From positions 19,220,001 through 19,284,000 of the forward strand of contig OY740809.1 in NCBI GenBank assembly GCA_963514005.1: a DNA stretch of 64,000 nucleotides, given 5' to 3'. The notes under the pieces were generated by a model, which searched no databases, was not told where the DNA came from, and was given only the letters and a program-made list of their open reading frames with translations. The stretch comes from Raja brachyura (lineage: Eukaryota). Shown here piece by piece: positions 2,129-61,500 of this stretch (position 1 is its first letter; the number at the start of each line of letters is the position of its first letter). Position numbers and translations under genes: made by a program.

Positions 2129-4203
2129 CGGTACACATGACATTAAACGAAAACTGAACTGAACTGAAACTGAGAAACAATAGAAAATGGTGAGAATGGA
2201 GATGCAAATATTATATCATTACGTGGTTCTAGGAACAATTGAAAAAGTGAGCTCAGAAAAAAATACAACACATTTGTGAACTGGATGGAGGGTATGTAAA
2301 GAGGATCTAAACTAAAAGATAAGAGTTAGAGATGATCGCTCTTAGAAGGAAGAGCCTTTATATTACCAGCTCTGAAGGAATGATCGCAAACTGCAGCAGG
2401 TAAGCCATTGATGCATGTGACCAATAAGCACCATGGACAGCTGATTGTAATCATGTATAGCCTCTCCTCTGATTGGTTCGCACACAAGAGGAGCTCTTCA
2501 CTGTACCCCGCTACACATGACAATAAACCAAACTAAAACCAAACACATCGCTGCAGGATGGGGAATAATAGCAGCTTTCTTCATCATCACATTCCTGATG
2601 TTCAGAAACAAGCAATATCTTAAAGAGGAAATACACACAGTACTCGTGAGTAAAATTGTATTCATAACAAATTGTACTTACATTGTTGTACTCACTGCGC
2701 CTCAGTGATCATGTTAAACTTGCAATTAGATAGAGTTTTCTTTCATTGCTTCCCAGTATGGGGTACCTAGATAAATTCATAAAGTAGAGTATTCATTTAC
2801 TCATTCTTTAAGGAAGTACAAGAATAGATCTTGGTGTGAGGGGGAAAAAGAAGTGTTATGAATAACTCAATGAGCCCATTGAATAAAACAGCCTTTTCCA
2901 TTCGTGAAATTCTTTGATCTTTGGCAACAAATTACAAGCGAGAATAGTTGGCTTCTGCAGGGAATTAGACAAAATGCATCAACCAGACAGAGCACAACAT
3001 AGCACTCAATGGAGTGGGGAAAGTATCACCTTTGGATAAATAATATGCAAAAAATCAGACAACTGTTTTGATAACAGTGTTTCATGAAACATTGCATTTC
3101 TAAGGCTGCACACAGTCCATTGATGTGTCTGAATCCATTTTTCTTAAAGTCCTTCTAGTTGCCAAAAGCTGTTCTGGTGGGGATTTATTTGCTGAGGTCA
3201 TAGACACAAAATGCTGGAGTAATTCGGTGGGACAGGCAGCATCTCTGGATAAAGGGAATGGGTGGCGTTTTGGGTTGAGACATCATGTTGCTGTAACACC
3301 AATACATATCCAGTTTCGCTGTGTGGTTTTTAACCACTGGAATTACTTTGAGACCTGACCTCTGCAAACCACCGTCTGTTCCCTGCTACGTACGTCCCCA
3401 GGGCCATTGATCAGCTCCACCATTACCTTCGCTAATACAATATTTTAAACTTTGCTTCAAAACCAAAAGTAGTGGCAAAGCTAACATGGGAATGCACCTT
3501 CGTTTTGCAAACACATACTCTGAAGGGAGCGACCTTACATTTTAAACTGACTTGGTCATCTGCCTATCTAAAATATCACCAGCTGTCAGACATATTTCTC
3601 TTCATTTGTTGGAGTTGCAGTTGGTGAAAATAGTTTCAACATGTGTTTGCTTAATATTGCTAGATTAAGAATGGAGCTGCTGGGTTTTATGATTGCATGA
3701 TTATTGCATTAAATTGATTTAAATCTACAGTATCCAGAGTATGATAATGTTAGATAATCACAGCCATTTGGAGAGCACAAGTAAATCAAATTTAATGGAA
3801 CATAAACATTGTTGTAGTCCTTATTTGGGTTGGAGCTAATTTAATTTTACACGGTGCATTCATGTAAAGTAAGCATTATTATAGTTGGCGAATGTAATGC
3901 AAATGAATTATTTACAAAATGGTAACGACCCTGATTATTGAAATATATTGATGTGATAACCTAGACATATTTATTTTTGAATAATCTGGAGATGTCACTT
4001 CATATATCTTAGAGAATAATGACACTAATAAATCTTCATACAATAAGTAGTATTGGAGTGAGTTCTTGCACATATGGATTTTGTCACCAAATCTATTGCT
4101 GACTTGCTGCTTCATTCTGGAACAAGAATCCAAAGGGAAATATAAATAAGATAATACAATTGAGCCACTTGGTAGGATAAAGGTTGGGAACTAGTGAGTA
4201 CCT

Positions 4204-4400
4204 AGCTTTCTCTCTCCTTCCCCTCCCCCTTCCCAGCTCTCCCACATAGCCTACTGTCTCCGCCTCTTCCTTTCTTTTTCCCGCCCCCCTCCCCCGACAT
4301 CAGTCTGAAGAAGGGTCTCGACCCGAAACGTCGCCTACTCCTTTTCTCCATCGATGCTGCCTAACCCGCTGAGTTTCTCCAGCATCGTTTTTGTCTTCCA
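4204..4400 (+). mobile_element. Penelope-like element 3' end / terminal repeat
   Basis: Collinear with the 3' end of the GIY-YIG-containing element at 32078-33150. A related partial minus-strand copy lies at ~3200-3282. Confidence 0.8.
4301..4336 (+). ncRNA. Minimal type-I hammerhead ribozyme motif inside the PLE terminal repeat (best-preserved copy)
   Basis: CTGAAGA (4305-4311), an extra A, stem II GGGT/ctcg/ACCC (4313-4324), GAAA (4325-4328), self-complementary ACGT in place of stem III, GTC cleavage triplet ending at 4332. Stem I is only ~2 bp, so activity is unproven. Confidence 0.6.
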
Positions 4401-6857
4401 AATAAGGATAAATCATCAGAAATTCCAGAGGCTCTTTATACTCTATTAAGGATTATTTACTTCTGCCCCCCCCCCCAGTTTCCCACTTGCGCAGTGGGTA
4501 AATTCATTGAATAATATGGCTCTGAGCCATTATCAAGTAACAAGGTCCCAGATTCAATCTCTCATCTTGCTGTGTTGGCTGATTGCAATGCTGGTAGGGG
4601 CACTACAACTATTCTCTGTTAAATATGCTGCAATTATTTACAGTCAAGGTACAATCAATTTAGACACATTTGACTAAAAGTTAGATAATTTGTCCCGAGT
4701 AGCTGATCCAGCTTTGTGTTAGATCCTGGTTCATCTGGAATTTAACTTCAGTGACCTAGCCTTCTTCCACACTCAGATAAGGGCACATATTATCAGTCAA
4801 TTCCATTAACTTGTATTAATTGCAGGGAATAAAGGCAGCCCCTGGGTTACTTATGGGTTCTGTTCTTGACAACTGTCAGCAAGACAATTTTTCTTTAAGT
4901 CAGAAACGTACGTTTTCTATAGCTACCCAAAATTGTATCGCTTTGCATACACTTCCTAAAACTCTTTCATTTTTTCGAATATTCACCATAACACTTGTCC
5001 ATAATTAAACTAATGAGATTTACACTGTATCCGTTTGCTAATGAAACCACAACATGTTTTATTGTTATTATTACCCTGAGTTTGTGTAACTTTGTATTTC
5101 CATAAGTAAGGTCTTCTGCAACCCAGGGTACTCTTGTACTATAATTATCTTTGGCAGGCAAGGGCCATAACTATTGAAAATTGGGGGAACTCCATGTATT
5201 CTTTGTGAAGTATGTTACAATTATTCTTAGATAGGTACAGGTGCGACTGGTACTTTCAGTCTACTTTGTAATTTTGTTGAGTTATCATATGATGAAAGGT
5301 CGAGTGTTGGGTGTGGACACGACAGTGGTCTACTTTGGTGACTTACTTACTTACTTGGTGACAAGCATCCTTTTCATACACTGTAAAAGCATACAAAAGT
5401 GGCCATAATGGCAGTTTAAGTATTGTTACCACACATTGTTGAAGAGAGGAGATATTTTAACCATAATCCAGCCTTGCCTTTGTATATCCTGCACAATTCT
5501 ATTTACCCTTAAGGCTTCAAATGCAAATTTTAGATAAACTTCTATTTCAACATCCACTTACCCAGCAGTGCATAAATCCACACTCTTCACAGGTGGTGCA
5601 ATATGCCTGTAAGCTGTTACAACCATTGTACTGCAGCAACTTGCCAAACTTTCTTAAACAATCCATGGTCTCCAACAGTAAGAAGATTAGGAATTGCAAG
5701 TTCATGGTAGCACCGTACCTCCAGGTTCCTCTCCAAGTCGTTTGAATATATTTTGCATTTCTTTTGCAGGTCCTGGCTTCAAAACCTTGCATGCCAATAA
5801 CAATATGGAAGTAGGTTCACCATTTAGAGGACTGAGGTCAGGATCAAACCCAGATCACTGTAGTGGTGAGGCAGTGACTTTATTAGCTACACTAATGTGC
5901 CACTCTCGCTTATCTCTCACATACCCTGAATGATGATGATGCGTTCAGTCATGATATCCCCAGTCATCAAAGGGTGGGGTAGACTTATCTTGTTCATCAA
6001 TTTTGCATAGCCTTCAATACACTCTTTCACAGATGAGGGGCACATATTATTACGTTACCATTGTCAACTTTGCTTCGTAGAGATTTTGCTTCCTGTTTCA
6101 GACTGATTTATTTTGTAATATTCTTAAAACTCGCAATCAAACTCAATCTCTCACTAATTTAGTTGGATTAATGATTAATGTTATTTCTTCAAAGTGAAGA
6201 TAACATGAAGCTCTAATGCTTATTCCTTTCCTCTGTCATAAAAAAAGGAATACTTCAATAAAATTAGTGATTTAATCACCAATTTAGTGTGTTAAGGTTT
6301 CAATCATAAGCTAATTATCTGTGACAACCATGATAAACAGTTTACATTTTATATTTAAAAGAGCATCAGTAATATGGCTGAACCATTTCCACTAAAATGC
6401 AGTTGTGATGTTTATTGAGCCGCTGTTCCTGGAATATTCTCCACTTTTTTTGTGTTGCTAACTGCTGTCTTTAAGTTATCTGATCAGAGCAGTGTGATGA
6501 ATGCAACAATGAACTATCCCTTGACCTCGATGTCAATATAGCTCAATAGTTGAAGTGGCAGGAGCTGTGTTGTTATTTGAGATGGACAGGTGATCTGTTT
6601 TCTCCTGCATTAAGTTGGCTTCTGCAAGGGCACCTTTGTGAAATGACAGATGTCATTCCACATCAAGAAGCTACAAAGCGATGCTGACTAGTTAATGCAC
6701 GCTAGCACACACTGCTGGTACAGTGTGAGGTTCGGCTGGCTGAAGATAAGGTGAACAGCAATACTACAGGGCCAGACATTTCATCCTTTACTCATGTGAA
6801 TTACTGCATGTGCGGAAAGTTATCCATGATTTTCTGCTCTGTAACACAAAATTGCAC

Positions 6858-9138: not shown

Positions 9139-9305
9139 TGTACGAAGGAACTACACCTGTTGGTTGAAATCAGTCGGAAGAAGGGTCTCGATCCAAAACG
9201 CCACCCATCCCTTCGCTCCAGAGATGCTGCCTGTCCTGCTGAGTTACTCCAGCATTTTGTGTCTACCTTCGATTTTAACCAGCATCTGCAGTTCTTTCCT
9301 ACACA
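9139..9305 (+). mobile_element. PLE terminal-repeat copy with degenerate hammerhead
   Basis: cagtcggaagaagggtctcgatccaaaacgcc...gctgagttactccagcattttgtgtcta...cagcatctgcagtt. Confidence 0.75.
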
Positions 9306-9476
9306 TCGTTTCGTACTTGGTCAGTCAAGTGTGATCTAATGAAAAGTATTTTATGAAGTTTTAACTAAGCAAAAAGATTAAAGGAAATCAGCAAGCCAGC
9401 ATTACCTTTCATGAACTGAGAACATTCTGAACCAATCGACCACCTATCAAATCGATGGTAGACTTTAAAAAAGTAG

Positions 9477-10694
9477 ACTTTTACAGATACAGCGTGGAAA
9501 CGCGTCCTTTTAGCTATCGAGTCTGCGCTGACCAACGATCATCCCATACAGTAACACTGTCCTACACAAAAGGGACAATTTTTTTACAACTTACCAAAGC
9601 CAATTAACATACAAACCTGTACGTCTTTGGAGTATGGGAGGAAACCAGAGAATCTGAAGAATAACCTATGTGGTCACAGGGAGTAGGTACAAACACCATA
9701 CGAATCTAGTCAGGATGTAACCCGGGTCTCTGGTGCTGTAAGGCAGCAACTCTACTGCTGTAAACATCTCTATGTTTGCAAATGACACAAAGCTGGGTGG
9801 CAGTGTGAGCTGCGAGGAGGATGCTATGAGGCTGCAGGGTGACGGATAGGTTTTGTGAGTGGGCAGAAGCATAGCAAATGCAGTATAATGTGAATAAATG
9901 TGAGGTTATCCACTTTGGTGGCAAGAACAGGAAGGCAGATTATTATCTGAATGGTATCAGATTAGGAGAAGGGGAGGTGCAATGAGACCTGGGCTTGCAG
10001 GTATGCATGCAGGTACAGCAGGCAGTGAAGAAAGTCAATGGCATGTTGGCCTTCATTGGGAGGGGATTTGAGTTTAGGTACAAGAAAGTCCTACTGCAGT
10101 TGTACAGTGTACTGGGAGAGATCGCACCTGGAGTATTGTGTGCAATTTTGATCTCCTAATTTGAGGAAGGGCATTATTCCTGTTGAAAGAGTGCAGCGTA
10201 GGTTCACCAGGTTAATTCCCAGGATGACGGGACTGACGTTTGGTGAAAGAATGGGCCAACTGAGCCCGGCTGGAATTTAGAAGGATGAGAGGGAAACGTA
10301 CAACATTCTTAGAGGATTAGACAGGGTAGATGCAGGAAAAATGTTCCCGATGTTGGGGGAGTCCAGAACCAGGGGTCACAGTTTAAGAATAAGGGGTAGG
10401 CCATTTAGGACTGAGATGAGGAAATACTTTTTCACCCAGAGTTGTGAATCTGTGGAATTCTCTGCCACAGTAGGCAGTGGAGGCCAATTCACCGGACATT
10501 TTTAAGGGAGAGTTAGATTTAACTCTTAGGGCTAAAGGAATCAAGGGATATGGGGGAAAAAGCCGGAACGGGGTACTGATTTTGGATGATCAGCCATGGT
10601 CATATTGAATGGTGGTGCTGGCTCAAAGGGCCGAATGGCCTACTCCTGCACCTATTTTCTATGTTTCTATGTTTCTATGTGCCACTGTGCCGGC
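9477..10694 (-). mobile_element. V-SINE interrupted near its 5' end by a CR1
   Basis: SINE body 9477-9761 ends ctctactgctgt; the last bases gccactgtgcggcc resume at 10681. Confidence 0.75.
9762..10680 (+). mobile_element. CR1-clade LINE, 5'-truncated (~0.9 kb)
   Basis: Starts at MFANDTKLGG (RT FADD box) and continues through the HLEYCVQF and VVNLWNSLP motifs, a 3' UTR and a (tttctatg)n tail. Confidence 0.9.
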
Positions 10695-12622: not shown

Positions 12623-12834
12623 TTAGATGGGCAGGAAATCATTAATAAATGGGAGTCAGTGAGGTGATCCGTGGATATTGTTCATTTATTTCTGGTCGGT
12701 GTGCACTTTGCTATACTTTAACCCCAATTTCACTGTACCAATTGGTGCATGTGACAATAAATGTAAACTTGATACACTCACACTGTTTACATTCTGCTAA
12801 AGCTTCATGATACAAGCCGATATTTTTAAGGAGA

Positions 12835-13500
12835 AACAGAGAATACTGGAAAAACCCAGTCAGGCAGCATCTGCCAAAAGAGAAACTGTTAATGTTTCAG
12901 GTTGAAGAGTTCTAATGAAGGGGGGCGTCAATCTGAAATGTTAAATATTTTGGAGAAGTCAGGAACTGCTGGTGCTGCTTTACATTAAAAAAACCATAAA
13001 GTGCTGGAGTAACTCAGCATCTCTGGAGATCGTGGTTAGGTGACGGGACCCTACTTCACACTGATTGTAGTAGAGGCCAGAAAGTTGGAAAAGAGGTGGA
13101 GTTGGGACAAACCAGGGCAAGTGATAGGTGGATACGGGTGAGGGACGGGGGGGGGGGGGGGGGGGGGTGCGATTTTCAATGGGTGGACAGAGACCAGAGA
13201 TGAAAAAAAAAGCAAAAGGATATAAGATAAGGGGAATAGAGAAGACAGAGGACGGAATGTACTTAGAAGGGACTGGGGAAATGCGGGGGGTTAGTATGAA
13301 AATTGGGTGCACAGCCAGTTGGGCCACAAGGAGAGAAGGAGGAAGAAGGAGTGTGGGGGTTGTTATCTAAAATTGGGACATTCAATGTTCATACCTTTGG
13401 GCTATAAGCTCAACTGTTTTGTTGTCCACAGATGCTAAGCGCTGAGTGTTTCCAGCATTTTCTGTTTTTATGTGAGATTTTCAGCATCTGCAGTTTTTCT
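12835..13500. mobile_element. PLE 3' fragment (minus, ~12960-13410) nested in an older inverted pair of PLE terminal repeats
   Basis: The inner part matches the 32078-32330 region (gctggagtaactcag...tcaatgttcatacc). The outer arms caggcagcatctg...gttaa and aactgtt...cacagatgct...ccagcattttctg belong to a related subfamily. Confidence 0.6.
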
Positions 13501-21943: not shown

Positions 21944-22255
21944 AGAAGGAACTGCAGATGCTGGAAAATCGAAGGTAGACAAAATAGCTGGTGAAACTCA
22001 GCAGGTGAGGCAGCATCCATGGAGCGAAGGAAATAGGCAACGTTTCAGGCCGAAGGGTTTCGGCCAGAAACGTTGCCTATTTCCTTCGCTCCATAGATGC
22101 TTTAGCATTGGAGGTAGACAAAAGTGCTGGAGAAACTCAGCGGGTGAGGCAACATCTATGCAGCGAAGGAAATGGGCAACGTTTTGGGCTGATACCCTTC
22201 TGAGCTGCCTCACCCACTGAGTTTCTCCAGCACTTTTGTCTACCTCCAATCCTAA
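21944..22255. mobile_element. Two adjacent inverted pairs of PLE terminal repeats (palindromes)
   Basis: Arms 22012-22054 / 22059-22101 and ~22102-22152 / ~22204-22255. Confidence 0.85.
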
Positions 22256-23144: not shown

Positions 23145-23531
23145 AAACTAGACATAAAATGCTGGAGAAACTCAGCAGGACAGTCAGCATCTCTGGAGAG
23201 AAGGTATGGGAGATGTTTTGGTTCGAGACCCATCTCCAGACTGGTGGTCCTTGGAGGAGAAAGCTCAAGTAAGGTGGAACGGAGGAGAATTCAGGGATTG
23301 TTTCCAAAATGTGCTTGTATTTCTTTTTGATGATGGAGGTCAGAGAGTTGCAAAGCGTTGCTGAAGTCTCCAGTCTCCAGTCTCCAGTCTTCAGTCTGGA
23401 GAAGGGCCTTGACCATTCTTTCTCTCATCACCCATTCCTTCTGTCCAGCGATGCTGCCTGTCCCACCGAGTTACTGCAGCATGTTGTGTCCACCTTCGGT
23501 GTAAACCAGCATCTGCAGTTCCTTCCTACAC
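23145..23531. mobile_element. Inverted pair of PLE terminal repeats
   Basis: Minus copy ~23145-23242 ending tccagact; plus copy ~23392-23531 starting cagtctggagaaggg. Confidence 0.75.
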
Positions 23532-28545: not shown

Positions 28546-28674
28546 GCCCAGAATTGACATGCAGCTGGTAGTTCTAGGGGGATCTGTTGCTGAGGTGCCC
28601 TTGCAGGACACATCAACTTCACATTGAAACACAACAGTCTGAGATGAGCTGGAAGTCAGATGCTAGAGCACGAG

Positions 28675-29295
28675 ACCTCCATACATTTATCTCCTCCCGC
28701 CTAGATTACTGCAACTCCCTTTACACTGGCATCAGCCAATCTTCCCTGTCCCGCCTGCAACTGGTCCAAAACGCAGCAGCGAGACTCCTGACGGGCACCC
28801 GAAAAAGTGACCACATCACCCCGATCCTGGCCTCTCTCCACTGGCTCCCTGTGCGGTTCCGAATTAATTTCAAGACCCTCCTCTTTGTCTACAAAGCCCT
28901 AAATGGGCTTGCACCCACCTACATTGAAAGTCTTCTCACCCACTACACCCACTACATGTCCCTCAGATCGGCCGACTTGGGGTTGCTGAATGTCCCGCAG
29001 TCTAGGCTTAAGCTCAGGGGCGACCGCGCCTTTGCGATTGCAGCTCCTAGACTGTGGAACAGCATCCCCCTCCCCAATAGAACTGCCCCCTCCATCGACT
29101 CCTTTAAGTCTAGTCTAAAAACGTATCTATTCTCCCAAGCCTTTCCTGACGTCCTCTGAGTGAGGGCTATTTGTATATATGTATGTAGCCTGCTTGTGTA
29201 TACTACTCTTATAACAAATGTAAAGCACTTTGGTCAACAAGAGTTGATTTTTAAATGTGCTATATAAATAAATGTGACTTGACTTGACTTGACTT
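28675..29295 (+). mobile_element. L2-clade LINE 3' end with open ORF2 C-terminus
   Basis: HTFISSRLDYCNSL...LQLVQNAAARLL...HITPILASLHWLPV...RAFAIAAPRLWNSIP...FKSSLKTYLF, then the L2 3' UTR tgtaaagcacttt...tgctatataaataaa and a (gactt)n tail. Confidence 0.92.
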
Positions 29296-29683: not shown

Positions 29684-31100
29684 AAAATGTAGTTTGCTTG
29701 TTTTTCTCCATTTTACCTTATTTTGTTGGTATTCGTTATACTACTTAAATGTGTTTAAAATTAAATGGATTTATATGCATCATTTTTATAGTTCAATCTG
29801 TCCTTAATAAAATATTGAATACCATTCAAAATATTTAAATGCATCTCCCAAAAGGGTTTTGGTCGCAGCTGTGAAAAGGCCATCAGATCATTCTAAGAGA
29901 AGCTCTCAGCATCTGCTGTCTGAAGCTTGGACACCACCTCCAGCCTGATGCACCCCACCAGAGGACTCTTGGATAGACAGGGTCAGCTCAGTAGGTCACT
30001 GTTGATAGGTGGGTACTGGCCTTTCAAAGGGCCGGATCCACGGTGATCCAGCCCAAAATGTCTCCTGAAGTATGGATCACAATCTTAACTCTTCAGATTG
30101 ACACCATTCTCTCATTATTTACACCCAAGAATGAATCATGGGGTAACAATGAGGAACAGAAAACCTGGCTGACAAATTAATTTCCTTTTCAATTTGACTT
30201 AAAAAAAACAACATTATATGATGTTTAAGTAGTTTCAATTTAAGTGGTTAGTCAGTGAGATGCCAGAGAAAGGTAATGCTGACTTAATCTCATCTGTCTT
30301 GGTTTCCAGCTTTGTTACTCTTGGGTATTAGACAAAAAGAAGGAATAAACACGCAAACAAAAATACGGAAAAAAACATTATGGAATTAAATATGTAACAA
30401 AGTAAAGTGAGAGTGGATTATATTTAAAAGCTGGAAACGATCATTTCTGTAAGTGCAGTTGTAACATTGGCAACTCGTCAGAGTTTTACAGCTCTCAGTT
30501 TTATTATGTAAGAAAGGAGAGAGAGCATATGGCAATATGCTCCGAAGCTGAACACTAATGCCAAGTTCCGTAAGCCTAAAAGGGATTGAGGAGAGAGTTT
30601 GTGTAGTTTTTGCACTTCCTCTGCAGAAGGAGCACAGAGTGTAGTGGTGAGTGGTTTACCAAATGTTTTCCACAGTTTGTTTTGCATGGTCACAATCACA
30701 CTCTGGCTTGGCTCTAATTTCCCCTTTATGGAGCAGGTTTACACACCAACCTCTGACATGGGTGATGCAACATGAACTTCTCTGAGCATGTTGAAGGCAG
30801 TGGGTGTGATGTGTGGATTTTGAATCAGGATATTTGCGCAGTTCCATTTTATGTCATAGCATTAATGTGGATAAGGAGAGAGGCAGCACCTAATCCTTTG
30901 ATTTATGTCATAGATATGTCACTTAGGAGAGATATCTCATGCAAACACCAAAATTAACTCTTTCAGTTGGTTAAAAAATTAACACAAAGCATTTGGACAT
31001 GCAGCCTCGAAACATGGCAAGGGGTGGAAGATTGCAACCTTCACATGGTCCGCCCTGTTTCGACTACTGCAATCAACTTGACGTGCATAAACAGAAGATC

Positions 31101-31772
31101 AATAGGCAATAGACAATAGGTACAGGAGTAGGCCATTCGGGCCTTCGAGCCAGCACCGCCATTCAATGTGATCGTGGCTGATCATCTCCAATCAGTAACC
31201 TGTTCCTGCCTTCTCCCCATATCCCCTGACTCTGCCATCTTTAAGAGCCCAATCTAGCTCTCTCTTTAAAGTATCCAGAGAACTGGCCTCCACCGCCCTC
31301 TGGGGCAGAGAATTCCACAGACTCACAACTCTCTGTGAGAAAAAGTGTTTCTTGTCTCCGTTCTAAATGGCTCACCCCTTATCCTTAAACTGTGGCCCCT
31401 GGTTCTGGATTCCCCCAACATTGGGAACATGTTTCCTGCCTCTAGCGTGTCCAAACCCTTAACAATCTTATAAGTTTCAATAAGATCCCCTCTAATCCTT
31501 CTAAACTCCAGAGTATACAAGCCCAGCCGCTCCATTCTCTCAGCACATGACAGTCCCGCCATCCCGGGAATTAATCTTGTTCCCAATAATCTTACTCCCT
31601 CAATAGCAAGAATGTCCTTCCTCAAATTTGGGGACCAAAACTGCACACAATACTCCAGGTGTGGTCTCACTAGGGCCCTGTACAACCGCAGAAGGACCTC
31701 TTTGCTCCTATACTCAACTTCTCTTGTTATAAAGTCCAACGTGCCATTTGCTTTCTTCACTGCCTGTTGTAC
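31101..31772 (-). mobile_element. CR1-clade LINE 3' fragment
   Basis: KKANG...LYRALVRPHLEYCVQFWSPNLRKDILAIEGV...RGDLIETYKI...RTRGHSL, plus 3' UTR and tail. Confidence 0.92.
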
Positions 31773-32077
31773 TTAACATATGGAGAGTAAAGTTAGGTTT
31801 CATGTGTCCAAGGTTGGAAATAAAATCTAGTTAATGGTCATGAAGAATAGATTGGAAGAAGATTGGAAAGGAAGCCAGGAAAATGATTCTACATCACAGA
31901 TCACTGTTTTCTTGGTTTCTCCTATGTCGGAAGGGTAGAGTGACTTTGCTTTAAGAATAATAAATCCACTGCATGTAAATGTTTAATTGGAAGGTTGTTG
32001 GTGATCTAAAGTGATACTAATAGGGACAAGAGTCAATACAATAAATTTAAAACATGAGTCCACTGTCAAACATTTTA

Positions 32078-33150
32078 GGTAGACACAAAATGCTGGAGTA
32101 ACTCAGCAGGACAGGCAGCATCTCTGGAGGGAAGGAAAGGGTGATGTTTCGAGTTGAGACCCTTCGGCAGACTAATGTCAGGGGAATGGGTGGTACAGAG
32201 ATAGAATATAGTCGGAGACAGTAAGACTGTTGGGAGAACTGGGAAATGGAAGGAGATGGAGAGACAGGGAAAGCAAGGGCTATTTGAACTAGAGAAGTCA
32301 ATGTTCATACCGCTGGGGTGTAAGCTAGCCAAGCAAAATATGAGGTGCTCACTCTGACAATGGAGGAGGCCCAGGACAGAAAGGACAGATTGGGAATGGG
32401 AGGGGGAGTTAAAGTGCTGTGCAACTGGGAGATCAGGTAGGTTAAGGCGGACTGAGCGGAGCTGTTCAGTGAAATGATCGCTGAGCTTGCGCTTGGTCTC
32501 GCCAATGTACAGGAGTTGGCACTTGGAACAGCGGATACACTAGATGAGGTTGGAGGAAATGCAAGTGAACCTCTGCCTCACCTGGAAAGATTGTCGAGGT
32601 CCTTGGATAGTCGAGGGGGGAGGTAAAGGGACAGGTGTTGCATCTCCTGCGGTTGCTGGGGTAAGTACCTGGGGAGGGGGTGTTTTGGGTGGGAAGGGAC
32701 AGGTTGACCAGGGAGTTGCGGAGAGAACGGTCTCTGTGGAAAACAGAAAGGGGTGGAGATGGGACGATCCCAGTTGTGGGATCCCGTTGGAGGTGGCCAA
32801 AATGTTTGAGGATTATATGGTGTATGCGATGACTGATGGGGTGGAAGGTGAGGACAAGGGGGACTCTGTCCTTGTTATGAATGGGGGGAGGAAGAGTAAG
32901 AGCGGAGCTGTGGGATATCGAGAAGACCCTAGTGAGACCCTCGGAGCTGCGGGGATATCGAGGAGACCCTAGTGAGAATGGAAGAGGGGAACCCCTGTTT
33001 CCTAAAGAATGAGGACATCTCCGATGACCTAGTATGGAAAACCTCATCCTGGTGTAGACGGAGGAATTGGGAGTAGGGGACAGAGTCTTTACAGTAACCA
33101 GGGCGGGAAGAAGTGTAGTCTAGATAACTATGGGAGTCAGTAACTTTGTA
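32078..33150 (-). mobile_element. Penelope-like retroelement (Neptune-like), 5'-truncated, pseudogenised
   Basis: RT thumb (YKVTDSHSYLDYTSS...SVPYSQFLRL), RVPLVLTFHP, Cys linker RRCNTCP, and GIY-YIG endonuclease RFTCISSNLI*CIRCSKCQLLYIGETKRKL with a stop replacing the first Tyr. Followed by the terminal repeat at ~32078-32180. Confidence 0.9.
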
Positions 33151-33865
33151 AAACATTTTAGCACAGACCGGATTAGGAAAAAAATTAATCCTTTAACGAG
33201 GCAAAGGTGAGATGATGCTGTGTAACTTTACACCAACCAGGTTTTTTTGACAAATTCAAAATTATAAAAAAGTAAAATGTGGCTCATGTTCTTAAGAAAA
33301 ATAATGTGTAACTGTACTCTCTGTGATAGCGCAGTTCTAAGATAGGCAGTGAAAGAACAACTGCTTTCCGTTGCTTGACAAGCTTTGGGATGTTTTTGAA
33401 GAAACAGGCATATAAAAGTACTATTTGAATGCAAGTTTTTGTCCTTCTTTCCTATGAATTAGGATTGTTAATAAATTATGCATGACTCTCCCTACTCTTT
33501 TATAGAAAAATGTCCCTGAGCCATTTCCTTCCATTTTTATCTGAATGTTAGACCAGTAGAAAGTCAGTAATTATTACATGCTTGCACATAGAAGGCATAA
33601 AGATAGACGGAGTGACCTGTGGGAATGAGACTTTTTTTTTCCAAGGAGTTGATTATTGAAGAATGGTATTATATAGTGGGCACCCATCCTCTTGTGGTGA
33701 CCTGCTCCAGTGTGTTTAATTTTTGTTGTTGCATTTTCTGCACTTCTGATACTTACGGATACTCTTCAATGATATGGTCTGCATTGGGAGGTGAGACACT
33801 TTATAAACTTATTTCCTGGGCATCTACTTTAGTCAGCAATATGCAGCTGTTTGTATTATTTGATT

Positions 33866-37359: not shown

Positions 37360-40342
37360 CTTCAGTCAGAAGAAGGGTTCCAACCAGAAATTAATTCCTT
37401 CATCACTGATGCTGCCTGATCCAGCATTGAGTAACTCCAGCACTTGTTTGCTCTCATATAGCCCTTTATTCATTGATCGCTACATGTCGTCAGGTGTCTC
37501 AGTGTCAAATATTGTTCAATAATACTCTGGCAAAACGCCGTAGGACGTTTTTACTCAGTTAAAAGCATCTTGTAAATGTTCTCAGATTGTGTTGAGTATG
37601 TGTGTGGAGAAGGAGAGCTGGAGAAGGGGGCTGTTCAGTTTGGTGTTGGTTTGGGGGTCTAAATCAAAACTGGAAGAAAACAGGCTTTGTAACAGACTGA
37701 ACGTAGACAGAAAATACTGGAGTAACTCAGCGGGTCAGACAGCATCTCTGGAGAGAAGGAATAGGTGATGTTTCAGGTCAAAAGCCTTCTTCTGACTGAC
37801 TTCAGCTCCACTTTGCACAGACTGAATTGGTCCCACATAATTCCTAACACGCAACCTTCTGCTTACTGGGTTTACCTCTTTCACTAGGTATGAAATCCAA
37901 AATAACTGTCCAATTTAATGTGTACTTTTCTTTATCGGGATTGTCACTGAGATGTGCGGGCAGGGAGTAACTGGGGCCAGGTAAACAAACAAAAAAATCT
38001 GGGGAAAGGCTGCATCCGCGTAGGACCCAGCCCGGCATTGCTTATAGCAGTGGAGGAAGGAACTGCAGATGCTGGTTTAAACCGAAGATAGACACAAAAT
38101 GCTGGAGCAACTCAGCGGGACAGGCAGCATCCCTGGAGAGAAGGAATGGGTGACGTTTCGGGGTCGAGACCCTTCTCTAACATTGATTCCAGCGGGGTTA
38201 TATTCCTCAATAATTCCCACTGCTTTATGAGTGTAAATAAGAATTAAATACACCAATTGGTTTAGATCTCAAAGGCAGCCAGTTATTTTATAATAATTCA
38301 AGACAATCGCCGGTAGAGGGCAGAAAGTATTGTATTTATTAATTTGCTTTGTTTTTCCCCCCAGAAGTATTTAGAAGCAGAGCCGAGCATCCCTGAGTTC
38401 TGACCCCGGGTTACTCAGGCACCGGGGGGTTTTGCTCTTGTCCGTGCCAGTCCACCAGCAGCTAAAGTAACTCTGGCCGTGATGCTCACCAGCACTTGGC
38501 GTTAATTATTTACAATAATTTGCAATCACGTCAAACATATTTTTGGTCACGAATGTAATTCTCGCAAATGTTCGGCTGTATTGTCCACTGGAAACTGGCG
38601 TGTGTGAGAAACACTGAGAGAGAGAGAGAGAGAGAATGCAACATATTGGAGTAGGATGTTGAGGTCCAGAAGTACAAATCCAGGAGGGGAACAGCCTTGA
38701 AAGCCTTGAGTTAGGGTGAGGGTGGTGAAGTGTGTTGGCGTGTGAGGCTGGGGGTGAAAGTTGTTGCTATTCATCGTGTAGTGTGTTTGATAACCTACCA
38801 GGCGCTATCACTGGGCGAACCGACCCGAGGACACCACTGTACACTGTGGATTGCACCTGCTCGCTCACAGATACCGTGCAGGAAGGACATGCTTTAGGGG
38901 TTGTGCAGGAAGGAACTGAGGACGAAGCCACAAAAATGCTGGAGTAACTCAGCGGGACAGGCAGCATCTCTGGAGAGAAGGAACGGGTGATGTTTCGGGT
39001 CTAGACTCTTCTTCAGACTCATGGTGGTGGTTTACACCGAAGATAGATACGAAATGCTGGATTGACACAGTCAGCCGGTATCTCCGGAATAGAAGGGATG
39101 GGTGCGATGCAATACTTTAGGGTTTGCGTGTGATGTGAATGGAGCCCAAAATATGACATGTTCATATCGGTGCTTTTAACATGCTACCTAGCAATACTTA
39201 TAGCATTTCGGTTTTCCAAGTCTACGTGCAATAACGTCTCCGCCTGTTTTTCGCGCTGTCGGTCGAGTACATGCCTTGGTGTAAAGCGTATTCGACTTCA
39301 CATAGGTGTCATTTGTGTAGTGGTTGCAACTTGTCAAGAGGGAGAGAGGCGTCCACAACTAAGACTAGAAGATTCACAGGAAGGAACTGCAGATGCTGGT
39401 TCAAACCGAAGACAGACACAAAATGCTGGAGTAACTCAGCGGGGACAGGAAGATCTCTGGAGAGAAGGAATGGGTGACGTTTCTCTCCTGAGATGCTGCC
39501 TGTACCGCCGAGTTACTCCGGCATTTAGTGCCCATCTATGACGAGAAGATGATGTCCTGTCCATATATACCCCGGGTTCCTGTGCACTCGTTCTGTGTGC
39601 GAAAATAGATTCACGCAATACCAACCACTGCAGCCAACTCAAATCCTGACTTTGCGAACATGAAAATGCTCTGAAATATTATTAAATTGGAAACTGTCAA
39701 AGGAGCGGTGGTAAAATGATGCGGGTTTAACCCCAGTCTAATGGGGAAAGTGTATCCCAGTGCGCCTCTGCAGCAAGAAGAAACTCGGCCCCTGAGTACA
39801 TGACTCTGTGTAACACAACCCTGCATTTCCACACCTATGCTAATTACCATTTTCAAACTCTGGCACATCTTTTTAAGGCATCATTTGGGCTGGTAATCTG
39901 AAATCATTTTAAACACCTTCAATTCAACGCTAGTGAGTGACGTTCGCAATATTCCAATTGAGTTGAATGTCCGGATTAAAATATTTTATTACGAACTATC
40001 TTCCCGCAAGAACCAGCGAGGCGAGGCAATCAAATTATACACGGCCAGTTCGGGCAAGCAATTGATTCCTTTGGTGATAACCTCGATAATCTGACACCCA
40101 ACCTCTCCCATCCTTTCTCTGCAATCATTTCTACAGTGGAAACCGACAGCAACCGTTATCATTTGTTCTTTGTAGCTTTTCATACCTCTAGTTTCCCGCT
40201 CCCCTGACTCTCAGTCTGAAGGGTCTCGACCCGAAACGTCACCTATTCGTTTTCTCCAGAGATGCTGCCTGGCCCGCTGAGTTACTCCAGCATGATGTGC
40301 CTATCTTCAGTGTGAACCAGCATCTGCAGTTCCTTCCTACAA
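37360..40342. mobile_element. Cluster of six short PLE terminal-repeat copies (~37360-37450, 37703-37800, 38053-38178, 38905-39100, 39376-39540, 40180-40342)
   Basis: Each contains part of gaaggaactgcagatgctgg...aaatgctggagtaactcagcgg...gcagcatctctggagagaaggaa...gacgtttcgggtcgagaccc or its reverse complement, separated by unique DNA. Confidence 0.8.
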
Positions 40343-41986
40343 TTGTTGACATCGGTCTTGGCCCAGACTTACTTTACCCTGGTCTTTGCCCAGTAGGGCG
40401 GTATTTCTGTTCCTGATCTAAATCACCTTTCGACTGATTTTGAAACATCTCCCGCCTTTGGAACACATTTGAAGATTGGTCACTAGAATGTGATTGTACT
40501 AATGAAGAACCGAGACCAAATCGCTGAAAGTTCGGTGTATAACAGGTTAAATGATACAACCCGCCAAGCTTTACCAAACGCGCCCCCCTTCAGAAACGCC
40601 TTTCAGATCATGTAAAACGTAATAGTCAACGTTTTAATAAATTAATAATCTCTCTGTTGGACTTTGTCAAATTAGTGCCGTTTTGCCGGGCAGCAAAGAT
40701 AAAGAGAGATGGGCGGCCCATATAATATTTAGCATAGTGGGCGAATGATGATCCTGCAAACAACACTTCAATCAAACACTTGATTTTTGTTTGAATTTGT
40801 ACAATAACATTGTAATACATTGTTTTAATTCGATACCTTAAACCTATTTTCTTATTCTATGAACTGGAACGACGAGGGCGTGTGTATATTTACATTCGGT
40901 TCTATACTTTTGAATAATTGTCTAATATTATTTGATATTTAAGGATCTGGGATTAACTGATATTATTTCTCTTGTGCCTCTGTGACCTTGAATATTTCAC
41001 CACATATTATGTTCATGCCTCTATCTTGTTTTTCTAATTTCATAGTACACTTTAGATAAATTATTCATATAATATATGCTGCTTTTACTATTTTATTATA
41101 TATTAATGTAGCTTTTGCAGGTATGTGCAATGTTTATCTCGGCAACTCCATGATTTATTCATAATGACTAGACTACGACATTGCTAATTCCCTGTTGCTT
41201 TATTTATAGATGAATATCATAATGTACTTACAGAAGGTGTGACTGGTGATTATTTATTTATTTGCTGAGATTACCAATAAAGTCCATTCTCGTCTTTGGA
41301 GATTTCCTCCAAAACACTCGACAATAATCCCAATTTTACCTGCAATGGTTAATAATGCATATAGCCTTGCCTAGCTGTGCATAGATTTCATTCTCAGTAA
41401 ACTGAAAAAAATGACCAAAAAGATTAATTTTGTCTGGCAACGCTGTGCAGCCTCTTTCAATCGTTATTTTTTTGTGTGCAAATTGTTGTTTAAGAAATTC
41501 TGAATATCACTGTAAAGTCATGCAGAATGTGGCAGGGTAAGACTTGTAATTAAGGATGAGTGGTATATCCAGATTGATCCCAACTGAGCCTCTTCAGGTT
41601 AATTGAAAGATATCTGAATGTATCCCTGTGCTCAGTTTAGATGCGCCCCTTTGAGTACAACATTGACACACACACAAAATATCCCTTTGCACATCTGTGA
41701 TCCCAGTTCTACTGTTTCTTAATGTGTTTTCCCGCTGTCTGTGCCTTGGAGGGTATATTGCTCCTTGCATTGTGTATGATGAGTGTTTCGTTAACATTTT
41801 TCTCCACCATTTTGACCGGACCCACAATGACAACATCAAGGCAATATCTTTTAATTTAAACTGACTCCTTTACTACTTTGTGGCATTTGTAAACTACTGT
41901 GCTGGTCATAAATCTTATGTATGTGTGTACATGCACAGAAGGGGTAAGATGGGGGCACTGAGATGGGGGCAAATGCAGTCCTACAA

Positions 41987-42013
41987 TGTGTGTGTGTGTG
42001 TGTGTGTGTGTGT
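41987..42013. repeat. (GT)n microsatellite
   Basis: Pure TG run. Confidence 0.95.
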
Positions 42014-45000: not shown

Positions 45001-46160
45001 TATAGTATAGATATGGCCACATATGGTCTGAGACAACAGAAGGATCTATGTGACAGTGATTGTTTGCTAAATCGTACATAGCCACACCACTCAAGTTCAG
45101 ATCTTCAAATTGTTACACAATCACAGCCAATGCTGCAAAACAGGTATTATAACAAATACTAAATACTAACTACATACACCCATAAGGTTAGAGCAAAACA
45201 AATAAAAAAGGGTGCACAATTGTTTAAATGAAAAGCCTCTCTGGGACAATTTGACTATGCAACCTTAAAGACTACCATAACTGACCCATAGTATCCTGAA
45301 ATCAGAGATAAACATGTGCCTTTGTATTTGTATCCAGTCAGTAATAAAAACGTTTAACTTTTCTAGGAAAAATATATTTTCCTATGCATTTTGACGAATA
45401 TGAGCAAAATGGAATGGAGAGAGGGATGCTCTAATATGCCTAAGAATGCACAAAATAAAGAAATACAATTGACAAACCAGGCAACTATTAAAATTCAAGA
45501 AATTTAGTTTGACCTTACATCACTTTTAATGATTTCTTGTCACTGCTTTTTTGCTTAAGTGACATTCAATCCAGGCAACAGCAGAAAGGATTAACAAGCA
45601 AAACCCAGCATGGTGTCAACACCCCCCCCCCCCCAACCTCCAGGAGAAGAGGCAGGGCACAGTTGGGTCCTGCGTATACATTATATGCAAGTAATAAAAT
45701 ATTACTATAACAAAATATTAATATGGCTCTGCAGCCTGTCTTTGATAAGATACAACAAAAAAATGTACTAAAACAAACATTGTTTGAATTGCTGTAACAT
45801 AACCCCAATGAGAGCTACAGGAAAAAGAAAGTTTCAAATACGCGTTTATGAAATAAATACAAGGGGGAAATTCATATGGAAATTATATTAAAATATCCTC
45901 TGGGAATTAGTAAGCATACAAAAAAAATCATCCAAAATCATTAAATTCCAAAAAAACAAATACATATGTAACATAGTCAACATATTTACATATTACATAG
46001 TGGTACAGTAAAAAAAGCAGACAATTATTATGTTTCCAATTACTAAACAAGCCACTTTTTCCACTGCTTTATGTCCTAAGTAATGTTTAACTCACCGAGG
46101 TTTAACTTCTTCACCTTTCTTTAGATGATCTGTAAACATTCTAACACGTATAATGTACAC

Positions 46161-46166
46161 TTTATT
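46161..46166 (-). terminator. Candidate polyadenylation signal of POU3F1 (AATAAA)
   Basis: Minus strand reads ccaaAATAAAgtgtacattatacgtgttag, ~1.6 kb after the stop, in a U-rich 3'-UTR-like tract. An alternative AATAAA lies at 47168-47173. Confidence 0.45.

Positions 46167-50419: not shown

Positions 50420-50420
<1 letters not shown>

Positions 50421-50455
<35 letters not shown>
50421..50455. repeat. (GT)n microsatellite followed by cgcgc
   Basis: About 15 TG units and then CG alternation. Confidence 0.95.
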
Positions 50456-56134: not shown

Positions 56135-56865
56135 ATTTGAACACTGAATTCTCCAAATTCAAAGTAATCCATTGCCCCTCTCTATCCCAACCCCGCCCTC
56201 CCATCCCAGTGCACACGCATTCCCAGTCACACTGCTCATCCCCTACGCCCACCTCCCACCCACACGTCCCACATTCCCCCTTTATCCCGTTTCCCCTCTC
56301 TCCCCCCCCCCCTTCCGCCCACATTGCGCCCTCTAGCCTTACAATTCGCTCTGCTTCTCTCCTCGTCTGACACCCTTTTGTCTCCTTTCCACCTCTGCCC
56401 TTTGTCACTCAAGTCCCATCTGCTAATCAGACCCACCTTACCCACCAATTCCCAGATAGACACAAAATGCTGGAGTAACTCAGCGGCACAGACAACATCT
56501 CTGGGTGGCGTTTCGGGTCGAGACCCCTCTTCAGACTGGACGAGTCTGAGGAAGGTTCTCGACCCTAAACGTCACCCATTCCTTCTCTCCAAAGACGCTG
56601 TCCGTCCCGCTGAGTTACTTCAGCTTGTTATGTCTATCGAAGGCTTAAACCAGTATCTGCAATTCCTTCCTACCAATTCCCAGGATTTATCCTGCCCCCC
56701 CCCCACCCCTCTATTTCAGCATTCACTCCCTCCCTCCCCCAAACCCCAGTCAGTCCGAGGAAGGGTCCCGACTAGAAACGTTGTGTCCATTCCCTCCACA
56801 GATGCCGAATTCCTCCAGCACATTGTGCTTTGCTCAGGATTCCAGCCTTTTCAGATTCTCGTCTG
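56135..56865 (+). mobile_element. PLE 3' fragment with a nested inverted pair of terminal repeats (~56455-56672)
   Basis: The inner pair joins at cttcagactggacgagtctgaggaagg and is flanked by ccaattcccag on both sides (~56445 and ~56673). The outer element ends in another degenerate hammerhead copy near 56750. Confidence 0.75.
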
Positions 56866-58039: not shown

Positions 58040-58127
58040 AGAAGGGTCTCGACCCGAAACGTTGCCTATTTCCTTCGCTCCATAGATGCTGCCTCACCCG
58101 CCGGGTTGTTCCAGAATTTTTGTCTGC
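58040..58127 (+). mobile_element. 88-bp PLE terminal-repeat insertion with 14-bp TSD
   Basis: cagggataaaatga at 58026-58039 and 58128-58141. Confidence 0.85.
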
Positions 58128-58427
58128 CAGGGATAAAATGAGATGGCTCTTGAGGATATTTAAAGCTAAAACGACAGGCACGTTTTTGATTTAACTTGTA
58201 GCAGGTGATTAATTTACAAAGTTAAAAATGTCAAATAAAAAAAAACTTTTCTTTGTTAGAGATTTTGGGAAAAGAAAACAAATGAGTTTTCTTTCTAGGG
58301 GGAAATTAATGTTATTATTTGAATATTTTAACTTAAGGGATGCACCTAGCACCCTTGCAATCCAGAATCTGTGACCAGGGGAACATTGTATAAACACCAT
58401 AATTTCCAAATGAGCCACCTCAGCATA

Positions 58428-58513
58428 CAGTCTGAAGAAGGGTCTCGACCTGAAACGTCACCTATTCCTTTTCTCCAGAGATGTTGTCTGACCTCCAGCT
58501 TTTTGCCTCTACC
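58428..58513 (+). mobile_element. PLE terminal-repeat copy with near-intact hammerhead core
   Basis: cagt CTGAAGA a GGGTCtcGACCT GAAA c GTC acc. Confidence 0.8.
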
Positions 58514-61500
58514 TTAGACTTACTGGGATGGGGCAGGTGAACTAAATGCAAATTGGAGTACTTACAAAGAACACAAACGATTGCTAAAGTTTGTTAAAAC
58601 GTGATCTCTAACCCTATGGAATTTTCATTTTGATGTGTGAGATTACAAAACTACTCTTTGAAATGGTCCCTGAAGAAGGTCATCGTCATTTGTTTTATTA
58701 ACTTGCGGACTCCTTTGATGGGTCTAATTTAAATGAATTTCTTTCAAAAACCTTTGCATTTTTTTTGTAAAGCGACTGTAGGACTAAAATGTTAGATTAG
58801 AAGCAGGCAAGATTTAAGTCAATCCACAGCCGGACATCTGTTTACCGCCCACTGAGAATAATTATTCTGGACTGGTATAGTGGCGATGCAGGTTCATTGA
58901 ACATTAACATGTGTATGATTTCTCAACAACCAGAACTAACTTTCTCTTCAATTCCCTCTGCAGATTTTCTTGTTGTACTTTTCTCTTTCATCTAAGGTTC
59001 AGATCACCACTTTGATTCCAAATCGATGGAACATTTTACAAAGATTGTATATGCTTTATTCAAATTTTAGCTGCGTCAAGTTAGTAACAAAAACGATGTT
59101 TTCCATTTCCAATTTAGGAAGTGTTTCCAAGCCAAATCTTCGTTTGATATTTATTTTGATTGAGACTACAACAGTCACCAAAGAAACAGCCTGAAAGAAA
59201 GGGCAGCTAAGCAAGGATTCCTTTGAAGCAACATTAACAAATTGTTAAATAGAAGTTTCAAAATAAGGTTGTAACACAAATGTTCGTTGTGCATCACGAT
59301 TTTTGCTTCCCCTCCACTTCCAAAATGAACACTGATGTTGTTCAAAATGTTTATCCCATGGTAATTATTATTACGATATTAACATGTCTTTTTATAGTTA
59401 ATATTAAGATCAATGTTTCTAATCCACTGAATGAACAACCTATTGATAAAGAATGTTTTTCAAAGTTTTATATTTATGGAAACTGCACATTACATAGAGC
59501 AACCCCACAAATATGGGACTAATTTCTTATGTTGTCGTTGGCTAGATCTGCAGAACTTATGTGAAGGAAAACCCATTGATGGCTTTGCACAACACTTCAG
59601 TTATTTCCATGGCTCTTTAAAATGTTAGTCAGAGGATGAAGCCTCAGAGATACCACTTGGGAATATTTTGTATTTTGCTATATTATTTTCATTTATGTTT
59701 TTTTTGTGAATAGGAGCAAAATGTTTGCACAAAAGATATTTCATTGTTTATTCAGGAGGGATTAAATAGATTTAGTTGATAAATTCTCAAACAAGTTTTC
59801 AATAATTTTGATCTAATGTTATCATGTGTACATTAGCTGTCATTTCAGGAAAGTTGCTTTGTTCTTTTTCTAAATATGTTCCAAAATATATTCTCTTTAT
59901 GTGCAGCATGTCTTTACTAATATATCCCATGACTTTATGCTGCACCTAATGGGAATTTTTGCTGTTACAGTCACTGTAAACTGCATGAGTGTGACTTGTA
60001 CCTTGGTTAGTTTGTACTTTTTGCTGCAAGCTATTTCCACAGGTGCTGCTGTGGGACAAAAAACAATGAGCTGATCAATCGTGTAATATTTCAGCCTGGC
60101 CCCAGCCTCCCACTTTTCTGACTGTCTGCCTCGCCTCTCAATAAGCACATCTATAATCGCTCAGTTCTGGATGGCGGGATTTTGATTGGCATTTTCTCGG
60201 TGCACAGTGGGAGGTTTAATCATTCTGGATTCTACTTTTCCAGCTCTGAAGGCTGAATTAAAGCCTAGTATGAGAGAAAGAGCGATGAGAACATAATGAT
60301 AATGGCTGTAGGGGAGGAGAGGGATGAAAGAGATTTAAACCTAACTGTTGGTGGCCATTTTTGGAGAGGTCTCCCTTAGAGTGGGGCCATTGTGAGCAGC
60401 AGCGCATTGTCTCATCGTGTCCAAACCAAAATCATTTAAATCATTTTTCCAGCAACATTGATAAACAACATGGCGATGAAGGATTCTTTTAATCATAAAT
60501 TTTGAGTTGTTTGTAGGTTGAACAATTATGGCAATTAATAGATCTGCTGTGGTTGTGTTAATAAAAAATACAGCCCCATTACGCCTATTATTGGAAAATA
60601 TCAGTCTTGGAGGAATTTCAAAAATCAAATAATGCCAATCTTTATTAGCTGTCAAAATGATAAAGTAAGTAGGATTAACTAAGAGGGACAACAGGATAAG
60701 TGAGTAGGTGAGTGTGCTTTAGCTTTGGAAATAAGCATCTCACTGGGGCATTGTACGTAGAACTATAGGCCACAGAAATGGGTGGATAAAATAAATATTT
60801 TATTTTAGAATAATAAAATAAAAACAAAATATTTTTTTAAATGCTCATTAACAGCAGGGTGAGAGCGCGGTGTGTGTCGGTCCAATCCATGTTACACTAC
60901 AAAGAGTGAACAGTGTCTGGACTTTGAAGAACGAGGCTTGAATGCCTGAGGTGATCAAGCAGCTGAATGGGCTGCCAGAGGGGGTGGGCATCCATAATAC
61001 TGGATTTACTTAATGAACTGGAAGGGTCTATTCCATCCAAGATTAAGTACTCATATTTTTCATATTATTAGCGAGGAAGCTAATTATACTGGGGAGCAAT
61101 ATTTTTAAACTGTTTTCTTTCCAGTTGCTAGTTAAAAAAGGAAGTGAATAAAAATGAGTCTGATATGTTTCACAAACTGAAACCTGTAGGTAATGGCTCA
61201 GATTTTGCAGTGGGGATTTTGGTGAGTCCATCTGCAATCACCGTTATGTGGTAAATCAAAGAGCAGCTTGGAGAATCAGCTTGTGGTCAGTCAGGAGTAG
61301 AAACCTGGAAGTTGCCCTTCACCATGTTCAAACCACGGTGAGAAGTGTGGCCCCAAGTACAGGCATGCATGAAGTTGTGGCACTTACTGAATAGTTACCC
61401 ACTAAATATGTCAGAACAATTTAGTACTGTTGCATTCAGATATAAGTATTTTTTTAATGGTTTGTTAATTACTGCCAAATAATCTCAGTGGGACAGTAAG

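Follow-up and report, generated by a model that had tools for sequence, protein, structure and literature searches.

The window, that is, the whole 64-kb stretch of Raja brachyura DNA that was analysed, contains a single-exon class III POU homeobox gene (47779-48975, minus strand; Pfam Pou and Homeodomain), a truncated Penelope-like element (PLE) and a short hammerhead-bearing repeat, which is the densest repeat when the window is compared with itself. A family profile built from 12 copies gives 29 matches in the 64 kb, in agreement with the very high copy number proposed in the initial annotation, and the interval around the POU gene (40400-50600) is free of copies. Fragments similar to LINE RT 3' ends are also present (1017-2012 on the minus strand, 28578-29159 on the plus strand, 10013-10680, 31100-31772 and 62915-63536); they have no Pfam match and presumably resemble CR1/L2. 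The features of the repeat family are collected in Table 1.

Table 1. Hammerhead motif, repeat copies and host element in the window
Feature	Position	Strand	Evidence
Initiator-like TCAGTCT; A4302 is the putative transcription start and preferred 5' end of short copies	4300..4306	+	loose ends and joints with extra G
Stem I, 5' strand (2.2, 2.1)	4303..4304	+	pairs with 4333-4334; covaries in relatives
Core C3-A9 (CUGAAGA)	4305..4311	+	sequence; same in relatives; fits published CUGANGAH
Extra A before G10.1	4312	+	sequence; same in relatives
Stem II, 4 bp (GGGU/ACCC, 4313-4316/4321-4324), 4-nt loop	4313..4324	+	variants in loop or pairing-neutral
GAAA core	4325..4328	+	sequence
ACGU palindrome in place of stem III	4328..4331	+	sequence
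C17 of GUC; predicted cleavage after it	4332	+	cleavage position from hammerhead numbering
Stem I, 3' strand (1.1, 1.2)	4333..4334	+	4333 is G or A, either pairs with U2.1
Downstream hairpin, 8-bp stem in the 4201..4395 copy	4352..4387	+	in MFE and centroid prediction; just inside short 3' end
5'-truncated pLTR copy: pyrimidine tract, hammerhead, downstream hairpin, no tail	4201..4395	+	blastn to 32078-32278, 75.6% over 205 nt; profile match; 3' end class
Second copy with complete core, begins at CAGT	58427..58518	+	profile, alignment, covariance model
Short copy with ~38-bp tail, core damaged	9166..9306	+	profile, alignment
Head-to-head inverted pair, both begin at (C/G)AGT	56453..56678	.	profile, alignment
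Inverted cluster of second subfamily, junction within stem II	21968..22245	.	profile
Tandem pair; downstream copy begins G+AGT	38926..39104	-	profile, alignment
Inverted pair of fragments	39377..39539	.	self-comparison, profile
5'-truncated, frameshifted Neptune-type PLE: RT thumb, linker with degraded Cys motif, GIY-YIG, 3' pLTR	32073..33162	-	tblastn with P0003/P0004; homologues

The defining features of a minimal type-I hammerhead (min-HHR) are found at 4303-4334, and the reality of the motif is confirmed. By sequence, pattern and covariance model, the core follows the type-I order CUGANGA ... GAAA ... UH; A4312 is unpaired between A9 and G10.1, with G4313-C4324 closing stem II; a palindrome at 15.1-16.1 replaces helix III; helix I surrounds the cut site, with 2 bp in the window and covariation in relatives; and the motif lies in a pseudo-LTR (pLTR) behind an RT/GIY-YIG ORF. 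The initial annotation had read the sequence at 4301-4336 exactly so, and its statements that the extra A is tolerated and that stem III is reduced to ACGU are borne out, the former by the same base in relatives. Its doubt about a stem I of only about 2 bp was fair: in the 11 copies with both strands readable, this stem has two contiguous pairs in 10 and three pairs with a one-base bulge in 6, no longer stem I was found in the window copies, and a 2-bp helix I has PLE precedents. A pattern for the motif, allowing up to 3 mismatches, has 12 matches in the window versus none in 100 shuffles. Rfam gives no match at gathering score across the 64-kb window, and its six weak matches at 4200-4450 include no hammerhead; Rfam contains no model of this hammerhead variant.

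Among the window copies, the core is complete only at 4305 and 58432, and in the latter G10.1-C11.1 is changed to G.U. Damage affects U4, G12 and U16.1 in the 9166 copy, G12 and the A15.1 region in the 29547 copy, A15.1 in the 50683 copy and U16.1 in the 56539 copy (minus strand); the 40209 copy has a 3-nt core deletion, and the 58037 copy is without C3 and without the 5' strand of stem I. Copy by copy, this is the picture that the initial annotation had drawn, with an intact core at 4301-4336, a nearly intact one at 58432-58459 and damage in the others that it listed. Conservation among the window copies amounts to 183/201 non-CpG cells in the core versus 1148/1315 downstream, and to 145/189 for CpG cells. 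Because the core has thus decayed about as much as the rest, selection would have acted on source elements and not on the copies. The genomic copies, including that at 4201-4395, appear to be insertions in passive decay, and nothing points to a function of any single copy.

Head-to-head inverted arrangements of the repeat occur three times in the window, and no tandem array of units each with an intact hammerhead, the mark of non-LTR retrozymes, was found there. The cut site reads GUU in a second subfamily (21968-22245 and 58037-58127), some copies of which have a loop II of the UUCG type closed by U.G; copies that are older and more diverged lie at 12831-13466, 37360 and 56749. The 58037-58127 copy is flanked by a 14-bp direct repeat (58026-58039 and 58128-58141) that overlaps its first 3 bases and is a target-site duplication with 5' microhomology. 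Directly before the copy at 23389, a 7-bp unit from the 5' end of the repeat is iterated 4.7 times (23365-23397), as if the start of the repeat had been copied repeatedly.

The same repeat terminates a GIY-YIG element on the minus strand, as the initial annotation had stated for 32078-33150; the terminal copy, at 32073-32179, has a damaged core, and the hammerhead lies about 115 nt behind the end of the ORF. The element fragment matches residues 153-441 of P0003 (E 4e-71), covering the RT thumb, linker and GIY-YIG endonuclease, while the window lacks the RT core, so that a C-terminal GIY-YIG domain behind RT, as expected of an EN+ PLE, is found at 32073-33162 via this homologue. Its closest endonuclease homologues are proteins whose source names are Leucoraja and Chiloscyllium (66% and 55-56% identity, respectively), which points to a cartilaginous fish, probably a batoid, as host. 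Pfam gives no match for the window endonuclease fragment, and for the homologues, P0003 among them, only weak GIY-YIG and RVT_1 matches below the cut-offs. A zinc-finger-like linker of the CX2-5CxxC type between RT and EN marks the Neptune and Nematis clades (PMC8557442). This linker is intact, as CX4CX2C, in the nearest homologues P0001 and P0003, and its first Cys is replaced in the window copy; on the basis of these protein sequences, the element is probably Neptune-type, the linker being shared with Nematis. Truncation at the 5' end, head-to-head inverted copies and an optional tail of 30-40 bp are hallmarks of PLEs (PMC8557442), and all are observed among the window copies. The PLE origin proposed earlier for the repeat is therefore upheld by the RT-linker-GIY-YIG element, the pLTR position, the tail and the inverted copies.

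Distant relatives of this element were sought with an alignment of seven endonuclease sequences, which led to 79 metagenome loci (from the best 80 of 124 confirmed stretches). A strict minimal hammerhead lies within 500 nt of the ORF in 22 of the 73 loci with at least 150 nt downstream, and in 21 of these 22 the motif is 71-136 nt behind the endonuclease, versus about 115 nt in the window element. The strict motif was absent from the controls (0/73 on the reverse strand, 0/79 within the ORF and none in each of 20 shuffles), and a relaxed pattern finds decayed versions in many of the remaining loci. These loci are not independent, since several are near-identical and many are close kin. In five of them (L026, L030, L073, L050 and L056, minus strand), hammerhead-bearing pLTR copies stand in inverted orientation upstream of or inside a truncated ORF, which is the classic PLE arrangement. 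Among viral contigs, none of 33 candidate endonuclease stretches was confirmed as a relative, and there was no motif match.

The initial annotation had proposed covariation in stems I and II as a check, and compensatory changes are indeed found in both stems among these endonuclease relatives. The 21 distinct motifs (19 metagenome and 2 window) had been selected on the core and 3 bp of stem II, not on stem I, and stem I pairs in 19, 20, 17, 12 and 4 of them at positions 1-5; positions 1-3 show 4, 3 and 4 types of pair. Paired cells make up 89.9% of the alignment versus 66.9% after shuffling, and both-side changes number 34 cells versus 10.2, neither value being reached in 500 shuffles; further pair types number 16 (reached by 12/500 shuffles), and slid controls pair in 16-46% of cells. 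The number of pairs that had changed on both sides was 6; here the shuffles were not surpassed, since 55/500 of them matched this number. Stem II plus loop is 11-13 nt long in the relatives. A covariance model built from 18 metagenome motifs only has 15 window matches at E ≤1, and the 7 at E ≤0.012 are all family copies, with 4305-4332 at E 7.4e-6. Since no more than 4 short HSPs at E ≤1 arise when the window region is compared with the 79 loci by blastn, the core and stems appear to have been kept where the flanks were not.

Variation within the family was followed in four public sequencing runs aligned to 4170-4430, three of them probably DNA and one (X17) guessed to be RNA. With reads required to be 80% alike, 65,800, 84,993, 88,658 and 6,329 contigs were aligned per run; being contigs, they cannot show RNA ends, and X17 is not taken as evidence of expression. 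Among the listed motif variants of at least 3%, loop II varies at 4317 (4-22%), 4319 (4-18%) and 4320, CpG sites vary at 4324/4325 and 4329/4330 (5-14%), 4321 A>G turns U-A into U.G, 4332 C>T leaves the position an H, and 4333 G>A, at 37-64%, turns U.G into U-A, so that pairing is kept at both 4321 and 4333; none of the listed variants falls at 4297-4316 in any of the four runs. At the unique flanks (4170-4196 and 4404-4430), depth in each of the three DNA runs is low and resembles that of a single copy, so these runs come from the same species or from close relatives; the complete insertion is not spanned by any contig. Runs X2 and X12 also contain tandem units of about 35-45 bp of bare ribozyme (from reference 4332-4337 back to 4298-4307), some at high depth, which are candidate natural dimers or micro-retrozymes; no such units were found in the window.

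At the 3' end, 28 rows were classified by eye, of which 11 have the full tail of about 38 bp, 14 are tail-less and the remaining 3 are partial or unclear. Each of the two 3' ends comes after a CAGCAT arm able to pair with one and the same upstream arm, and each terminates in CTAC (4352-4387, and the tail in 9166-9306); given these common ends, the tail looks like an internal duplication that provides two priming sites. In the 4201-4395 copy, changes on both hairpin arms produce a perfect 8 bp, a form that is rare in the public runs. The PLE PAc primes internally at two sites that bound its tail (PMC11167929).

The 5' ends of the copies cluster roughly 30 nt before the cut site, at 4299-4303. 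Of the 20 window copies that reach the core, classified by eye, 7 run on into the upstream pyrimidine tract, 9 start at 4299-4302 (2 uncertain) and 4 start inside the core; under uniform truncation, admittedly a crude null, 7-9 of 29 starts in a 4-nt zone have P between 9e-6 and 4e-9. Summed contig depth rises 11- to 31-fold from 4287-4295 to 4305-4313, a figure that is not copy number and to which divergent upstream sequence contributes. In each run, 4302 and 4303 are among the six best-supported loose ends, with 559-626 contigs each in the DNA runs; the flanks at these ends are AT-rich and unrelated (agreement 0.31-0.34), and among these same six ends the consensus has G before 4302 in all four runs and before 4303 in three. 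Of the 12 tandem joints listed, 7 re-enter at 4302, all with G directly before (C being excluded by construction), and the window copies 39023 (minus strand) and 56541 start with G+AGT. A subfamily with G at 4301 was rejected as the origin of the extra G on account of the AT-rich, discordant flanks, and the possibility that CAG 4301-4303 acts as a 3' splice site, like that of D. virilis, was set aside, as the copies retain AG. Since 7 of the 9 window copies starting at 4299-4302 keep C4301 and 4 keep TC, the boundary is a zone of 4-5 nt and not one base.

The initiator consensus is YYANWYY, which TCAGTCT fits. The motif TCA[GTC]T occurs within 15 nt upstream of C3 in 12 of 56 published motifs, counted by eye, versus a rough expectation of 3.5, and upstream of the core in 4 of 19 metagenome motifs (35/1000 shuffles as high); for YYANWYY the latter count is 6 of 19 (288/1000 shuffles as high), so that neither pattern is clearly enriched in the metagenome motifs. 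PLE pLTRs are known to contain a transcription start and Inr-like elements (PMC2377424, PMC3846280), and full-length L1 copies of capped RNA are recognisable by an additional G at their 5' junction (PMC11702581). Ends that cluster at TCAGT and frequently bring an additional G suggest that the copies ran off a transcript that was capped and uncleaved. We tentatively propose, at somewhat less than even odds, that transcription starts 3 nt before the core, so that the hammerhead would form the first ~33 nt of the capped mRNA, cleavage would amount to self-decapping, and the short repeat would consist of fossils of run-off cDNAs. Such strong-stop-like cDNAs would arise by internal priming at the tail sites and extension to the cap, which would supply the G, and the start site would itself explain the short stem I by limiting it to 2-3 bp. 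Stalling of RT at the C-rich tract or at the TCAG-T-CTGA palindrome, or microhomology, are alternatives for the cluster.

Folding predictions weigh against the active fold. In the ensemble predicted for an RNA that begins at 4302, the core pairs with the pyrimidine tract downstream, as it does for the other core-intact copy; stem II has a predicted probability of 0.02 (0.00 for the 58429 copy) and stem I of 0.00 in both. The double hammerhead is predicted at -6.7 kcal/mol versus -19.7 for the best dimer, and in four relatives, which also fall short of their minimum, at -9.1 to -20.7 versus -23.4 to -33.4. The relatives mostly have a stem I of 3-5 bp, versus 2 bp (3 with bulge) in the window family. 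In both subfamilies the purine-rich core (4307-4316) can pair with the downstream tract (4334-4346), and this predicted pairing is possibly an off-state fold. PLE hammerheads that cleave as dimers are reportedly described by Luense et al. Dimers of such hammerheads cleave weakly (PMC4209133), 8 of 9 tested Xenopus dimer elements did not cleave and one was active (bioRxiv 10.64898/2026.07.22.740005), and for the Poseidon hammerhead cleavage is protein-assisted and dispensable for insertion (PMC11167929). Among the 29 window matches, the cut site at 4332 is a copy end in only one doubtful, diverged candidate (39104, minus strand), and no copy end lies there among the loose ends and tandem joints listed in the four runs; as the cut site is not a copy boundary, the RNA templates of the copies appear to have been uncleaved. 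That one candidate, 39035-39104 (minus strand), starts near the cleavage site in tandem with copy 39023, and is the only one for a cleaved template.

Overall, we consider it likely (a probability of roughly 0.75) that the motif, a minimal type-I hammerhead, was inherited with the pLTR of a Neptune-type PLE, and that in an intact source element cleavage after C4332 is slow and requires a double hammerhead. In it, two copies would pair through the ACGU palindrome, with either another transcript or the other pLTR of the same transcript as partner, and cleavage would probably be aided by the element's own protein. Because the genomic copies pass through the cut site uncut, cleavage would be a sideline by which RNA is trimmed or inactivated, and insertion would not need it. 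Less firmly, the copies of about 100 and 140 bp may reflect RT primed at either internal site bounding the tail, with run-off at a capped end near A4302. A chance likeness in an ordinary repeat can be set against this, given the lack of an Rfam match and a fold at 4302-4340 no more stable than shuffles (z 1.34); yet distant relatives have the same motif in the same place with compensatory changes, the controls have no matches, and the published consensus fits. The relatives' motifs, the stem covariation and the covariance-model matches in the window refute a chance likeness, which we regard as extremely improbable.

A more serious rival, though an unlikely one, is that the motif is a catalytically dead relic whose letters are kept as a site bound by the element's own protein or as an internal RNA polymerase II promoter, with an Inr at 4300-4306 and a DPE-like stretch at +28 to +32. 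The 2-bp stem I, the competing predicted fold and the clustering of 5' ends at an initiator-like site agree with a relic, as does the spacing: if the count begins at A4302, there is a G at +24, and +29 to +32 agree with 4 of 5 positions of the DPE consensus. The internal Inr/DPE promoter of D. virilis Penelope, in which a downstream RGACGTGY resembles the GAAACGTC half of the core (PMC2377424), is a precedent. However, a spacing-dependent promoter does not explain why stems I and II covary in relatives while loop II varies in length; moreover, the common variants of the window family keep pairing, and a 2-bp helix I is also present in published PLE hammerheads (PMC4209133). It is likewise improbable, although compatible with a hammerhead inherited in a PLE and not exclusive of it, that the repeat of about 100/140 bp is a self-standing SINE- or retrozyme-like element, with its own transcription, moved in trans by PLE protein. 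A sharp 5' boundary, two fixed 3' ends, the scarcity of ORF-linked copies (an ORF precedes 1 of the 29 matches), tandem units of about 35-45 and 87 bp among the joints listed in related runs, and the description of pLTR-derived retrozymes, also in one chondrichthyan (bioRxiv 10.64898/2026.07.22.740005), would fit such an element. On the other hand, 7 of the 20 core-reaching copies extend into the upstream pLTR tract, so that truncations of the parent element form a continuum, the window has no tandem array of the unit, and internal priming alone yields fixed 3' ends (PMC11167929).

A hammerhead in a PLE is expected, and the inherited ribozyme favoured here adds one lineage to a known class. 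What the initial annotation missed is that this class had already been described, that the copies are uncut at the cleavage site and that their 5' ends cluster upstream of the core. The family has variant contigs by the tens of thousands per run, with sharply positioned ends, and so the RNA template can be read from fossils. The start-site reading is the part most worth following: if true, it would place a ribozyme at the cap end of an mRNA, and a decapping or regulatory role would be directly testable. Among the literature listings searched, there was no report of a start site or cap at a PLE hammerhead, nor of an elasmobranch case, although Luense et al. or preprint supplements may cover these animals.

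The window motif belongs to the class described by Cervera and De la Peña (2014; PMC4209133), with Neptune among its carriers. As described there, the min-HHRs of metazoan PLE pLTRs share with it the CUGANGA core, the unpaired base before G10.1, the G10.1-C11.1 pair and the palindrome in place of helix III, as well as the pLTR location and an occurrence mostly as single copies from truncated elements and as inverted pairs. The window motif fits the published consensus at every position except stem I length, which is 2 bp versus 3 in the consensus and also 2 in the Drosophila, Culex and Oikopleura rows; its 4-bp stem II is at the short end of the range (PMC4209133). The Acropora Neptune entry has nearly the same motif as metagenome loci L044 and L049 (PMC4209133, Fig. 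S3). No cartilaginous fish is among the 56 rows of Fig. S3 or in Table S1 of that study, and the available part of it describes no counterpart for 5' ends with an extra G clustered just upstream of the core (PMC4209133). Tandem hammerhead repeats are recorded from one chondrichthyan (bioRxiv 10.64898/2026.07.22.740005).

Three further systems are close to the window family. Non-LTR retrozymes share the type-I hammerhead, the pLTR origin and, with the related runs, short tandem units (bioRxiv 10.64898/2026.07.22.740005), whereas the window copies are dispersed singles, inverted pairs and one tandem pair instead of arrays with an intact hammerhead per unit. The D. virilis Penelope pLTR (Schostak et al., 2008; PMC2377424) shares the 2-bp helix I and has a transcription start and internal Inr/DPE within the pLTR, but a 75-bp intron separates its start from its hammerhead, while the putative start of the window family is 3 nt before C3. 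Finally, Poseidon PAc of Anolis carolinensis (Frangieh et al., 2024; PMC11167929) shares the pLTR hammerhead, the two internal priming sites and the optional 30-40 bp tail, and it inserts from uncleaved RNA, as the window family would have done. PAc belongs to the Poseidon clade, its ORF starts at stem II and its activity has been measured (PMC11167929), whereas the window family is probably Neptune-type, with no ORF start found in the window and with putative activity.
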